NCBI RefSeq assembly: GCF_009931435.1
Contig: NZ_CP043414.1
Strand: one strand, 5' to 3'
DNA: 64,000 nt
From: Escherichia coli
GTDB taxonomy: Bacteria > Pseudomonadota > Gammaproteobacteria > Enterobacterales > Enterobacteriaceae
Both the position numbers and the translations under genes were made by a program. The notes beneath the pieces are model-generated. The model ran no database searches, had not been told where the DNA came from, and saw nothing but the letters and a program-made list of their open reading frames with translations. This document shows positions 527 through 5,640 of this stretch, piece after piece; the first letter of the stretch is position 1; every line of letters begins with the position of its first letter.

Positions 527-2788
527 TCATCCCCGACGCAAATTCTGCGCCGCCTGCACCATGTTCGCCAGTGCCGCGCGGGTTTCTGGCCAGCCGCGCG
601 TTTTCAAACCACAGTCCGGGTTAACCCACAGACGCTCTGCCGGAATGCGTTTTGCCGCTTTCTTCAGCAGGGACTCAATCCATTCCACGCTCGGTACGTT
701 TGGCGAGTGAATGTCATAGACGCCTGGACCAATTTCATTTGGATAATCAAACTCTTCAAACGACTCCAGCAACTCCATGTCGGAACGCGAGGTTTCGATT
801 GTGATGACGTCAGCATCCAGCGCCGCAATCGAATCCATGATGTCGTTGAACTCGCAGTAACACATGTGAGTGTGGATTTGCGTGTCATCTTTCGCTACGG
901 CAGCGTTGATACGGAAAGCCTCCACGCCCCACTGGAGATAGGCATCCCAGTCGCTGCGACGCAGTGGTAAACCTTCGCGCAATGCCGGTTCGTCAATCTG
1001 AATGATGCCAATTCCAGCGGCTTCCAGATCGGCCACTTCATCACGCAGCGCCAGCGCAATTTGTTTGGCGATGGTTTCACGGCTGACATCTTCACGCGGG
1101 AACGACCAGCAGAGAATGGTCACCGGGCCAGTCAGCATCCCTTTCACCGGTTTGTCGGTCAGCGATTGCGCATACTTTGCCCACTCCACGGTAATCGGTG
1201 CCGGGCGGCTAACGTCACCAATGACAATCGGCGGTTTCACGCAGCGGGAACCGTAGCTCTGTACCCAACCGTTTTGTGTAAAGACAAAACCGTCGAGGTG
1301 CTCACCAAAGTATTCCACCATGTCATTACGCTCGGCCTCACCATGCACCAGCACATCCAGACCCAGACGTTCCTGCTCAACAATGGCCTGCTTGATATGT
1401 TCTGCAATGCCCGTACGATAGTTGTTGGCGTCGAGATTACCCTTTTTGAAATCCAGACGCAGGGTACGGATTTCTGTGGTTTGCGGGAAAGAGCCAATCG
1501 TGGTGGTCGGCCACGCGGGCAGTTTAAAACGCGCACGCTGGGCTTCAGCACGCACTTCATAGACATTCGCACGCTGACTGTCCTGGGCGGTGATCGCCGC
1601 CAGACGCTTTTCTACTGCCGGATTATGTACACGAGTAGAGTGACGACGCGCCTGAATCGGTGCACTCCACTCTGCCAGAGCTGCCGTGTCACCACTGTTC
1701 AGCGCATCGCGCAGCAATGCCAGTTCATGGCATTTTTGCAGGGCGAAGGCAAACCAGCTTTTCACTTCTGCATCAAGACGCGTTTCCACGCTCAGGTCGA
1801 TAGGGCTGTGCAGCAATGAGCAGGAAGATGCCACCCACAAATCACGTTTGCCGACAATGTCCTTAATTTGCGCATATTTCTCGGTAAGATCGGCGCGCCA
1901 GACGTTACGACCATTGATAAGACCAGCAGATAGCAGCCAGTCAGAAGGCAGACGCTTGTGCAGTTCAGCAACGTCATCTTTACCATGTACGAGATCGACA
2001 TGCAGACCCTGAACAGGCAGCGCAGTAATGGTGTCGAGGTTTGGCGTTACGCCTTCAAAATAGGTAGTCAGCAGCAGTTTCACCTGGCCCTGGAGCGCGT
2101 CGTAAGCGGGTTTATAGGCGTCCAGCCACGCCTGCGGCAGTTCCAGCACCAGCGCGGGTTCGTCGATCTGTACCCACTCAATGCCACGTTTTGCCAGTTC
2201 TGCCAACACTTGCTGATAAACCGGCAGAATGTCGCTCAGCAGGCTCAGGCGATCAAACTGTTCACCTTTCACTTTACCCAGCCACAGGTAGGTAACCGGT
2301 CCCAGCAGCACGGGCTTGACCTTGTGGCCCAGCGCCAGCGCCTCGTCCACTTCCTCCAGCAGCTGCGTCCAGGTCAGTTTGAACTGTTGGCCTTTAACGA
2401 ACTCCGGCACCATGTAGTGATAGTTGGTGTTAAACCATTTGGTCATTTCCGCTGCCGCCGCAGGTTCGCCAGTCGGTGCACGTCCACGACCAATACGGAA
2501 CAGAGTGTCGATATCTACCGAACCATCTTTGTTCTGGTGACGCGCCGGAACGTTACCCAGCAGCAGACTGGTGGTCAGTACATGATCGTACCAGGCAAAA
2601 TCGCCCACCGGCAGCAGGTCGATACCCGCTTGCTTTTGTTGATCCCAGTGACGAGCACGCAGTTCACGCCCTACCGCCAGCAGTTCTTCACGCGTGGAGT
2701 TCCCCGCCCAATAACTCTCTTGCGCTTTTTTCAGCTCGCGACGCAGGCCAACGCGAGGGAAACCGAGGGTGTGATTCAATATTGTCAT
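527..2788 (-). CDS. metE: cobalamin-independent methionine synthase
   Basis: 753 aa ORF, N-terminus [23 protein letters not shown] matches MetE; ATG at 2788, TGA stop at 527. Confidence 0.97.
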
Positions 2789-3023
2789 TTTTCTTCCTCT
2801 AATTATATGTAAATCCTATGGATTTTGAATTTAGGGAAGGCGGCAAGTTTATTCATCCCCGGGAGCTTACTGAAGTAAGTGACCGGGGTGAAGAAACGCA
2901 GCCAACGCACCATAAATTTAAAAGACGAAGGATTTTAGCCGTCCAGATGTTTACACATCCATAATTGGCGGTTACTGTATATTCCTCAAGCGCAAATTAT
3001 TCATGCCGAAGTGAAGGACTTTC
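2789..3023. promoter_or_regulatory. metE-metR divergent control region (MetR and MetJ operator sites expected here)
   Basis: 235 bp between divergent metE and metR starts; contains ccgtccagatgtttacacatcc, resembling tandem met-box-like octamers. Site assignment is from known biology, not exact consensus matching. Confidence 0.5.
2830..2915. repeat. ERIC / IRU intergenic repeat element
   Basis: gggaaggcggcaag ... gggagcttactgaagtaagtgaccggggtgaag ... cgcagccaacgca matches the remembered ERIC core (AAGTAAGTGACTGGGGTGAGCG region and central palindrome). A second copy is near 54125-54192. Confidence 0.6.
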
Positions 3024-3977
3024 ATGATCGAAGTAAAACACCTGAAAACGCTACAAGCGTTGCGGAACTGCGGCTCACTCGCAGCCGCTGCGGCGACGTT
3101 GCATCAAACGCAATCCGCCCTGTCTCACCAGTTTAGCGATCTGGAACAACGCCTTGGCTTCCGGCTATTTGTGCGTAAAAGCCAGCCGCTTCGGTTTACA
3201 CCGCAGGGAGAAATCCTGTTGCAACTGGCGAATCAGGTGCTGCCGCAAATCAGCCAGGCACTGCAAGCCTGCAATGAACCGCAGCAGACGCGCCTGCGCA
3301 TTGCCATTGAGTGCCATAGCTGTATTCAGTGGCTGACGCCCGCGTTAGAAAATTTCCATAAGAACTGGCCGCAGGTGGAGATGGATTTTAAATCGGGCGT
3401 GACGTTTGACCCGCAGCCCGCGTTGCAGCAGGGTGAGCTGGATCTGGTGATGACCTCCGATATTCTGCCACGCAGTGGCCTGCATTATTCGCCGATGTTC
3501 GATTATGAAGTGCGTCTGGTGTTGGCACCTGACCATCCACTGGCGACAAAAACGCGAATCACGCCGGAAGATCTCGCCAGCGAGACGCTGTTAATTTATC
3601 CGGTGCAGCGTAGCCGACTGGATGTCTGGCGGCATTTTCTTCAGCCCGCAGGCGTTAGCCCGTCACTGAAAAGCGTCGATAACACCTTGTTGTTGATTCA
3701 GATGGTTGCCGCACGGATGGGCATCGCTGCGCTACCGCACTGGGTGGTGGAGAGTTTTGAACGCCAGGGTCTGGTGGTCACCAAAACCCTGGGCGAAGGC
3801 TTGTGGAGCCGACTGTACGCCGCCGTGCGCGATGGCGAGCAGCGTCAGCCGATTACAGAAGCGTTTATTCGCTCAGCGCGCAATCACGCCTGCGATCATC
3901 TGCCGTTTGTGAAGAGCGCGGAGCGACCCACTTACGATGCACCCACAGTGAGGCCAGGATCACCAGCGCGCCTGTAA
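3024..3977 (+). CDS. metR: LysR-family regulator of methionine biosynthesis
   Basis: 317 aa, N-terminus [36 protein letters not shown] (HTH of MetR); ATG at 3024. Confidence 0.95.
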
Positions 3978-4764
3978 TAAACGTTGGCCAGTGCGGCTGT
4001 TGGTGCCAGATAGCCAGGTTAACCAACAGCCCTGCCGGAACGTGCATATTATTCATAATGCCCAGCGTTCCGGCGTCCACCTGAGTCGCGCCGTAGTTCC
4101 ACATAAAGTAGCCAATCCCGGAGGCCACCACGCCAAGAAACACCAGAATGCCCCATTGCAGCGTGGTTTGCGGCATTTTCTGCGCATTTCCCAGCAAAAA
4201 CCATGCAATCACTGCCACCAGAAACGCGCCAAGATAGAACCACGCAAAGGCGTTATGCTGTGGCATCGGACGAGTTTCCATCAGGCGTTTGTAACCCACC
4301 ATGCCGATAGCAAAAGTGATATTGGAGAGTTGCACCAGCAGCAGGCCAGTCCAGAAGTGGTCGGTGACCTGATCATAGCGAATAATTCCGGCACCAATCA
4401 CCGCCAACAAGGCGCTAAAAGCATAGCCCCAGCGCAGACGGCGCTTACTCATGATGTCATAAATCAGCGTGATGTAGAGCGGCGTCAGTACGGTGAACAG
4501 CAACAGCTCGGAGACCGTCAGGTAGAGATAGGCGCGAAAACTCAGCATATACATCACGCCAAGCTGCATCGCGCCCACCAGCATATACAGACCGACCGTT
4601 TTCAGGCTATTGCCACGGGTACGCAGAAACGGCAGAAACACGAGTGCCGCCAGGCCAACGCGCACCAGCACTGCAAAATAGCTATCGACGTGCCCCGCAA
4701 GGTACTCGCCATAAAAGCTAAAGGAGAAGGCCCACAGAATCGTGGTGATGATAAGTAGCGCCAC
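3865..4764 (-). CDS. yigM: EamA/DMT-family inner membrane transporter (biotin transporter YigM/BioP)
   Basis: Highly hydrophobic ORF. Start trimmed to GTG at 4764 giving 299 aa beginning [15 protein letters not shown], which fits the remembered K-12 length. The 3' end overlaps the metR 3' end convergently. Confidence 0.85.
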
Positions 4765-4839
4765 AATGGAAAACTCTTTGATTAACGAGTATCCATTGTA
4801 GCGAAGTATCAGGTTGACAACTGGCCAAATAAAGAACAA

Positions 4840-5640
4840 TTACGATAAATAGAGTTTACGCAGATAATGCGGCACCGCATCGTCGGCATTAGTACCAATC
4901 ACTTCCAGCTCCGGATGCAGATCTTTCAGACGCTGGTGCGCACTGCCCATAATGCAGCCTTTACCTGCCATCGACAGCATTTCGGCGTCGTTCATCCCGT
5001 CACCAAAGGCAATACAATCTTTCAGACTGTAGCCCAGTTTCTTCGCCACCGCTTCCAGGGCATGGCCTTTTGAAACGCCGCCCGCCATCACTTCCAGACA
5101 AGTTAGGGTAGAGAAGCTGACGTTGACGCGATCGCCCCAACGAGCGTTGATTGCCTGTTCCAGCGGCAGCAGTTGTTCATGAGAATCACAGGTGAAGAAC
5201 ACTTTGCTGACGCCTTCCGGATCCAGTAATCCTGGCTCATACAGCGCATATTTGAACACCGCTTCTTTAAAAAAGCGCATCTCTTCCGGGCGGTGGCGAT
5301 TCATAAACCATTCGTCGTCGCGATAAACGTTAGTAATGATGTCCGGGTTGTCGTTGACCACGCCAAACAGATCGCTGGCAATGTCGCGATCCAGGTTATG
5401 AGCAAAAATCAGATTGCCATCCAGATCATGAACGCGCGCGCCATTGGAGGTAATCATGTAAGACTTAATCTCCAGATTATCGCGAATTTGCCCCACATCA
5501 ACGTGGTGGCGACCGGTCGCAAACACAAAGTTAATGCCGCGCGCGGTGAGGAGCTTCAGAGTTTCTTTGGCGTAAGGGGATAACGTATGGTCGGGAGAAA
5601 GTAACGTGCCATCTAAATCAGACGCAACAACCTGGTACAT
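4840..5640 (-). CDS. yigL: HAD-family sugar/pyridoxal phosphate phosphatase
   Basis: Start trimmed to ATG at 5640 (MYQVVASDLDGTLL, HAD motif DxDGT); 266 aa. The longer ORF upstream would run into pldB. Confidence 0.9.
   Translation of the reverse strand: MYQVVASDLDGTLLSPDHTLSPYAKETLKLLTARGINFVFATGRHHVDVGQIRDNLEIKSYMITSNGARVHDLDGNLIFAHNLDRDIASDLFGVVNDNPDIITNVYRDDEWFMNRHRPEEMRFFKEAVFKYALYEPGLLDPEGVSKVFFTCDSHEQLLPLEQAINARWGDRVNVSFSTLTCLEVMAGGVSKGHALEAVAKKLGYSLKDCIAFGDGMNDAEMLSMAGKGCIMGSAHQRLKDLHPELEVIGTNADDAVPHYLRKLYLS

Follow-up and report, generated by a model that had tools for sequence, protein, structure and literature searches.

Most annotated long overlaps between genes are, in general, mis-annotations, and Palleja et al. 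(2008) proposed that overlaps of more than 60 bp are possibly real only in the convergent orientation, with most of them conserved only in very close species (PMC2478687). The convergent genes metR and yigM (bioP) overlap at their 3' ends, and this overlap is already annotated and published. It was noted by Cote et al. (2016), who found the Keio metR mutant to be synthetic-lethal with bioA and sensitive to a BioA inhibitor, phenocopying loss of yigM, and who concluded that this deletion disrupts yigM as well (PMC5120140). More recently, ExcludonFinder (2025; PMC12288877) included bioP-metR in its set of 165 convergent MG1655 excludons, and the pair appears in at least 50% of the RNA-seq sets for this strain. 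The supplementary tables of Palleja et al. were searched for b3827, b3828, metR and yigM and none was found, and our literature searches returned nothing on yigM together with antisense, and no data on reciprocal expression or RNase III processing for bioP-metR. New here are a frame-by-frame dissection of constraint, an account of how the stop codons arise, a survey of the lineages that carry the overlap and a description of natural states in which the two genes are separated.

The metR and bioP genes and their 113-nt overlap

The overlap was analysed in a window of 64,000 nucleotides of Escherichia coli DNA, to which all positions below refer. Its identity to E. coli chromosomes reaches 98.9%, with a match in 5425 of 5426 complete genomes. 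According to the ORF list and the annotation, the gene order is metE (527-2788, minus strand), metR (3024-3977, plus strand), bioP/yigM (3865-4764, minus strand), yigL and pldB. The metR coding sequence ends in a TAA stop at 3975-3977 and encodes a 317-aa LysR-type regulator of the methionine regulon, as assigned by the ORF list, RefSeq annotation and family matches. Its product matches the NCBIfam MetR equivalog over residues 1-317 with 740.7 bits (cut-off 382) and contains the Pfam domains HTH_1 (residues 5-63) and LysR_substrate (residues 86-288). PDB 5FO5 is identical to MetR over residues 1-92, and the effector domain of Neisseria MetR (PDB 4AB5) aligns to residues 87-296. An AlphaFold model of MetR, built from a shallow alignment of 22 sequences, had a pLDDT of 41.5 and was set aside, and the 4AB5 alignment was used instead.

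The bioP coding sequence starts with GTG at 4764 and ends in a TAA stop at 3867-3865. Translation, RefSeq annotation and family matches identify its 299-aa product as a ten-helix DMT/EamA biotin transporter. It scored 309.9 bits against TIGR00950 over residues 11-273 (cut-off 230), the second of its Pfam EamA domains ends at residue 275, and its AlphaFold (AF2) model has ten helices and a mean pLDDT of 89.6. The length of 299 aa is kept across genera. Both ORFs are thus real genes of recognised families.

From the ORF coordinates and the sequence, the two coding sequences share 113 nt on opposite strands (3865-3977). Within this stretch, the first codon positions of the two genes lie opposite each other, metR position 2 opposite bioP position 3, and metR position 3 opposite bioP position 2. 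E. coli K-12 MG1655 has the same geometry, with bioP at 4011076-4011975 (plus strand) and metR at 4011863-4012816 (minus strand), as does the RefSeq strain 2013C-4282. The K-12 pair (b3827/b3828) is the same locus, with the 113-nt geometry and the neighbours metE, yigL and pldB; there is no structural difference, and the window is ∼99% identical to E. coli.

For comparison, the best 80 loci were taken, one per species and all from Enterobacteriaceae (Escherichia, Citrobacter, Salmonella, Klebsiella, Enterobacter, Kosakonia, Buttiauxella and others). The fully scored set (n = 80) comprises 79 other species and the window, and both stops were located in each locus. The earlier note on this DNA had described a tail-to-tail overlap of metR and yigM of about 113 bp on opposite strands, and its coordinates are correct and identical to the K-12 annotation. 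A misassigned stop, which that note had raised as a possible flaw, was checked and is ruled out by the ORF list, the sequence and the conservation of the stops among the 80 loci, as neither frame has an earlier in-frame stop. Mis-prediction of start codons is irrelevant here, since the gene ends concerned are set by stop codons. Palleja et al. recognise real overlaps by agreement with orthologues, and at this locus lengths and stop positions do agree (BioP 299 aa and MetR 317 aa in 71/80 loci). In summary, metR and bioP are a convergent overlapping pair of recognised genes on opposite strands, with shared 3' ends and orthologue-consistent lengths, and both C-termini are predicted to be translated through to the annotated stops.

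Constraint across the overlap and the making of the stop codons

Per-site entropy was computed by codon position over the 80 loci. In the metR-only region, entropy at metR positions 1/2/3 was 0.12/0.07/0.91, and a metR-like periodicity was seen at 3865-3917 (0.14/0.21/0.63). This metR-constrained segment encodes MetR 281-298, the end of the effector-domain fold with its last helix, and carries the BioP tail (residues 283-299) as a passenger. At 3930-3977 the values were 0.34/1.02/0.19, a bioP-like periodicity, compared with 0.16/0.97/0.04 in the bioP-only region, and the two substitution patterns were indistinguishable (bioP position 3: 1.02 vs 0.97). Here BioP 263-279, the C-terminal half of helix 10, is the constrained product, with residues 303-317 of MetR, its tail, as the passenger. 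Between these segments lies a crossover at 3918-3929 (bioP codons 3919-3930), where MetR A299-E-R-P302 is encoded opposite BioP W279-V-A-P282. The crossover is near-invariant at all positions in both frames, with an entropy of ∼0 at nearly every site, and synonymous codon entropy was 0-0.29 for MetR 299-302 and 0-0.18 for BioP 280-282, against an expected 0.85-1.4.

The protein sequences follow the same division. Amino acid entropy was 0.25 for MetR 281-298 (0.23 gene-wide) and 1.27 for MetR 303-317; for BioP it was 0.52 at residues 263-278 (0.34 gene-wide) and 0.90 at residues 283-299. Pairwise identity was 54% for the MetR tail vs 92% for its core, and 67% for the BioP tail vs 83-87% for its core. 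In the BioP model, pLDDT averaged 55 for residues 281-290 and was below 50 for residues 286-299. The MetR fold ends at window positions 3887-3911 (LysR_substrate at residue 288, 4AB5 at residue 296) and the BioP domain at ∼3940 (residues 273-275). The functional cores, as outlined by the family models and the solved structure, therefore stay clear of each other, and functional residues of the two proteins compete for the same nucleotides over only about 12 nt.

Synonymous variation suppressed in both frames was sought along the whole overlap and found only at 3918-3929 and a few single sites. The conservation check on overlapped codons that the earlier note had suggested thus gave one dominant frame per half, with both frames frozen only at the crossover. 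Its statement that the overlap constrains both C-termini holds only insofar as the partner gene sets the sequence of each tail; the tails themselves are variable, and dual constraint extends over only ∼12 nt plus a few sites.

The register of the overlap also accounts for where each gene stops. In this phase, Phe-Ile (TTY ATH) on one strand reads as a T-R-A stop on the other. The codons of MetR Phe281-Ile282 (TTT ATT, 3864-3869, plus strand) supply, in their complement at 3867-3865, the TAA stop of bioP. These two codons are TTT-ATT in 79/80 loci and the bioP stop is TAA in 80/80; synonymous entropy at F281 and I282 is 0, compared with expected values of 0.78 and 0.89. In Erwinia, where there is no overlap, Phe-Val occupies the MetR 281-282 site.

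A reciprocal arrangement forms the end of metR, whose stop (3975-3977) is followed by an in-frame back-up stop (3978-3980). This element (3975-3981) derives from the complement of the codons of BioP Phe262-Ile263 (3976-3981) and residue 264. Where BioP 262-263 is Phe-Ile or Phe-Met, the second of the two metR-frame codons is always TAA or TGA (68/68), and where it is Phe-Leu, the first is always a stop (12/12). [quoted passage not shown]

Phylogenetic spread, separated states and the two tails

Overlap length varied little within the sample. It was 113 nt in 71/80 loci and 116 nt in six, in which the first metR stop is lost and the next codon serves. Two loci (L017 and L034) overlap by 98 nt and have a MetR of 312 aa, and one (L027) overlaps by 68 nt and has a BioP of 284 aa. 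In a further case (L067) metR is frame-broken upstream and the 113-nt end is intact.

The arrangement extends to other families. Yersinia has a 113-nt overlap, with MetR and BioP of the same lengths as in the window, and Dickeya and a Dickeya-like contig have a 98-nt overlap, with a Dickeya MetR of 312 aa. BioP of 299 aa is also found in Pectobacterium, Brenneria, Sodalis, Cedecea, Chimaeribacter and Nissabacter. The genes are apart in Serratia, separated by a 36-bp spacer, and encode a BioP of 286 aa and a MetR of 314 aa. In Erwinia toletana a DUF1456 gene sits between metR and bioP (BioP 287 aa, MetR 312 aa), and the bioP homologue of Vibrio and that of Microbulbifer do not adjoin metR. By eye, a terminator-like GC-rich hairpin was seen in the Erwinia sequence after bioP.

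An overlap in the same register was thus found in three enterobacterial families, and it is improbable that an identical register was gained more than once, which favours a single ancestral overlap. By parsimony over a few lineages, the overlap was probably present in the common ancestor of Enterobacteriaceae, Pectobacteriaceae and Yersiniaceae and would have been separated later in the Serratia group and in Erwinia; as Hafniaceae, Morganellaceae and Budviciaceae lie outside the sample, its age and polarity are only roughly bounded. A relic of the overlap was sought in the MetR tail and downstream DNA of Erwinia and Serratia, where the only match beyond metR-core homology was 9 nt long and not significant (E = 0.64).

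In both Serratia and Erwinia, the cores of the two proteins are retained as far as the crossover, beyond which the tails are unrelated. With a slash marking the point of divergence, the Serratia proteins end ...WVAP/KQIG (BioP) and ...AARP/GAAGAKALAAGV (MetR), and the Erwinia proteins ...RWI/IGKPVGV (BioP) and ...ASR/AGVPLPGTVQG (MetR), each sequence running to its stop. BioP homologues elsewhere also have short, unrelated tails. A MetR tail of similar length is therefore present without the overlap, in Serratia and in Erwinia.

Although replaceable, the tails do not appear wholly neutral. Synonymous codon entropy over MetR 281-302 was 0.56 vs 1.04 expected (P < 5e-5), and the loss was centred on the crossover and on F281, I282, H288, C290 and F295. 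Opposite the MetR sites of low synonymous variability lie the BioP stop, E299, R293, R291 and Q286, and E299 is invariant (80/80 loci). In the other half, GTC and GTT are almost never used for BioP V268, where either would put a stop in MetR at Ser313, and the BioP H276 codon is almost always CAT, which keeps MetR Asp305. Under random choice of synonymous codons, the frame of the MetR tail would stay open with P ∼0.52 (0.66 for the window) and that of the BioP tail with P ∼0.88. An overlap of this length therefore calls for little special explanation, as open tails are not improbable once the cores abut. The MetR tail is nevertheless open in 78/80 loci compared with ∼52% expected, and its persistence exceeds what drift alone predicts; the BioP tail is open in 79/80. 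These patterns likely reflect weak selection that falls short of full dual coding and acts either on an RNA feature or on the C-terminal extension of MetR and a small number of residues in the BioP tail.

Transcript ends, alternative explanations and comparison with known systems

The overlap of the coding sequences leaves no room for a terminator, and transcription of both genes necessarily yields mRNAs whose 3' ends are complementary over at least 113 nt. By the definition of overlapping transcripts, metR/bioP is a convergent excludon. The earlier note had read transcriptional interference or antisense pairing of the 3' ends from the overlap; complementary ends do follow from it, and interference or regulatory pairing would be a putative consequence. 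A consensus scan found no terminator-like site, intrinsic or bidirectional, in 3600-4400; the single match of the scan (3578-3590) was within the number expected from shuffles, and the folded hairpins near the overlap have no U-tract, so that no bidirectional intrinsic terminator was found among them. Among Rfam families in 2700-5000, the only hit was a sub-threshold V_AS5 in the metE-metR intergenic region (28.7 bits vs a gathering score of 96). In the Term-seq tables of Adams et al., no 3' end is named for metR or yigM, and a Rho termination region lies inside yigM at MG1655 4011704 (∼window 4136), upstream of the overlap (PMC7815308).

A candidate conserved GC-rich stem-loop was found in the bioP transcript at 3809-3852 (minus strand). 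It begins 13 nt past the bioP stop, lies inside metR codons and has no U-tract. Over 33 species (RNAalifold and pair counts), 94.5% of cells were paired, with seven double-sided changes and many G-U pairs, a level of pairing reached by 1/500 shuffles. Its consensus energy was −15.9 kcal/mol on the minus strand vs −8.7 kcal/mol on the plus strand, and it is weaker in Erwinia (−10.2 kcal/mol). The stem-loop may be a by-product of invariant MetR peptide codons. Plus-strand hairpins past the metR stop (3995-4031 and 4034-4074) were also considered. These are stable in the window (z −2.7), have a weak consensus (−12.6 kcal/mol) and show little covariation, and they were rejected as incidental; the hairpin at 3995-4031 arises from BioP LLV/HQQ codons that are altered in other genera.

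The explanation that we favour, and that the sequence comparisons make quite probable, is a frozen juxtaposition of two unrelated gene cores with predicted-dispensable tails running into each other, in which the overlap, itself genuine, would be anciently fixed. The structured cores would abut nearly back-to-back on opposite strands without an intergenic spacer, each ORF would continue past its own core into the antisense of its partner's core, and each ends at a stop that conserved Phe-Ile/Leu codons of the partner create. At either C-terminus, 15-17 residues would then be by-products of the other gene. We propose that the overlap persists because an indel or rearrangement there would harm the last helix of MetR or helix 10 of BioP, and not because dual coding is useful. 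Only insertion of DNA at the crossover could undo it, a state that the Serratia spacer and the inserted Erwinia gene would exemplify, and any mutual repression might be a side-effect.

Other explanations make different demands on the tails. If one ORF truly ended earlier, the annotated coding overlap would be an artefact, as most long annotated overlaps are (PMC2478687), and the poor conservation of the last 15-17 residues of each protein and the shorter natural alleles (MetR of 312 aa in L017, L034 and Dickeya; BioP of 284 aa in L027) point in that direction. However, stop codons and not predictions define these 3' ends, and the window has no earlier in-frame stop. MetR is homologous to a solved structure through residue 296 (3911) and BioP to EamA through residue 275 (3940), with no bioP stop before 3865, and even the shortest natural alleles overlap by 68-98 nt, which makes an artefact extremely improbable. 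At the other extreme, both tails could be functional, with the whole 113 nt under purifying selection in both frames. Fewer synonymous changes in the overlapped part of MetR, the invariance of BioP E299 and of its TAA stop (80/80), the MetR tail kept open more often than expected (78/80 vs ∼52%) and the restricted codon choice at BioP V268 and H276 are consistent with such true dual-function coding. Yet the periodicity shows one dominant frame per half, and the tails are far less conserved than the cores (54% and 67% identity vs 92% and 83-87%). Both tails are swapped for unrelated sequence in Serratia and Erwinia, BioP homologues elsewhere carry short unrelated tails, naturally shortened alleles exist and the BioP tail is modelled with low confidence; we therefore regard full dual coding as unlikely.

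Selection could instead act on the antisense relationship, with RNA pairing (RNase III) or polymerase collision making bioP and metR expression mutually antagonistic and linking biotin uptake to the methionine/SAM regulon. Biotin synthesis consumes SAM, and a physiological link between biotin and methionine is therefore conceivable. Such a regulatory excludon would fit the complementarity of the transcripts over at least 113 nt, the listing of the pair from at least 50% of MG1655 RNA-seq sets (PMC12288877), the retention of the arrangement in at least three enterobacterial families with no terminator between the genes, and the conserved, strand-biased candidate stem-loop just past the bioP stop. 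The conservation is, however, more simply explained by the cost of indels in two essential-fold segments, and Serratia and Erwinia have split the genes and gained ordinary hairpins. Moreover, Term-seq defines no metR or yigM 3' end, and the Rho region in yigM would limit read-through (PMC7815308). We therefore doubt that the overlap is a selected regulatory excludon, and it is similarly doubtful that it is a device tuning biotin uptake against the MetR regulon, with the stem-loop and the kept-open MetR tail as its parts. A new biological question opens only if the antisense relation proves regulatory.

Deleting either gene damages the other, and the phenotypes of metR and yigM mutants in genome-wide screens should be read with care. 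In the Keio design, a deleted gene reportedly retains its final 21 nt. By that design, the metR deletion presumably removes BioP 270-299, which is half of helix 10, and we take it from the same arithmetic that a yigM deletion should remove MetR 289-317. With these deletion limits, the Keio metR phenotype would reflect loss of half of BioP helix 10 and not of the tail. Genome recoding, likewise, must split the metR/bioP pair. The locus also provides a worked example of a long convergent overlap that persists at low cost, where the cores stay separate and each gene gives only a tail.

In its general form the pair resembles the conserved long convergent overlaps of prokaryotes (Rogozin et al. 2002, as cited by Palleja et al. 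2008, PMC2478687), which likewise exceed 60 bp and join well-characterised genes with orthologues of equal length. Compared with the cases of Palleja et al., the metR/bioP overlap is deeper, spanning Enterobacteriaceae, Yersinia and Dickeya (PMC2478687). It shares with excludons the convergent neighbours, the overlapping transcripts and the absence of a terminator between the genes. In classical excludons, however, long UTRs produce the overlap and expression is known to be reciprocal, whereas in metR/bioP the coding sequences themselves overlap and the pair is known as an excludon from transcript overlap. Two opposite-strand frames sharing nucleotides are likewise found in the long antisense ORFs of Pseudomonas aeruginosa (PMC8850804). 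There, a novel ORF is claimed inside an older gene and selection is proposed in both frames. In contrast, metR and bioP are two old, unrelated genes that share their tails, with double selection over ∼12 nt.

Short alleles of metR and bioP, and a split metR

Natural alleles differ in length at the 3′ ends of both genes. MetR is 312 aa in the loci of Citrobacter gillenii (L017), a Pluralibacter MAG (L034) and Dickeya (L086), because a codon for BioP Val268 there reads as a stop in frame with metR. In another locus, L027, it is BioP that is shorter, at 284 aa. These naturally shorter sequences suggest that the extreme tails of MetR and BioP are dispensable. In Leclercia adecarboxylata NCTC13032 (L067 3300-4250), metR is broken over several reading frames (five tblastn segments), so that either the assembly contains indel errors or the gene is a pseudogene; this locus nevertheless retains an intact 113-nt overlap and metR 3′ end.

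The bioP start and the metE–metR intergenic region

The conserved N-terminus of BioP is that of the 299-aa form, which begins MALLIITT and has a GTG start in the window. The ORF listing also gives an upstream extension (window 4765-4839, − strand) to an alternative TTG start at 4839, 25 codons further upstream, which adjoins the yigL stop and would yield a 324-aa protein. Calls of 324 and 328 aa are present in public databases (P0082, P0033 and P0042). In the divergent metE–metR intergenic region, an Rfam search returned a match to V_AS5 (RF02818; window 2814-2932, + strand) at 28.7 bits (E = 0.002), which is below the gathering score of 96 and probably arose by chance.

Structure and termination around the bioP 3′ end

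A candidate GC-rich stem-loop (window 3809-3852, − strand) follows the bioP stop at a distance of 13 nt, within metR codons for a 13-residue peptide. Across 33 species it is 94.5% paired, and G-U pairs are numerous. Judged by consensus energy, the bioP-sense strand is the favoured one; a U-tract is absent at this stem-loop. Where bioP and metR are separated, hairpins just downstream of bioP were found by eye in the printed sequence. In Serratia (L088 3362-3397) the hairpin is weak, with a 6-bp stem and a 12-nt loop (GGGCCA...TGGCCC). In Erwinia (L089 3365-3410) the stem is GC-rich and stronger (AGCGGAGCGG-GTAAA-CCGCTCCGCT), and the two genes are separated there by an inserted DUF1456 gene. For MG1655, Adams et al. 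(PMC7815308, 2021; supplementary file 2) reported a region of Rho-dependent termination that lies within yigM (bioP), at 4011704 (+). Carried over to the window, this position falls at about 4136 (− strand), about 270 nt upstream of the metR–bioP overlap, and Rho-dependent termination there could limit bioP-sense transcription reaching metR.
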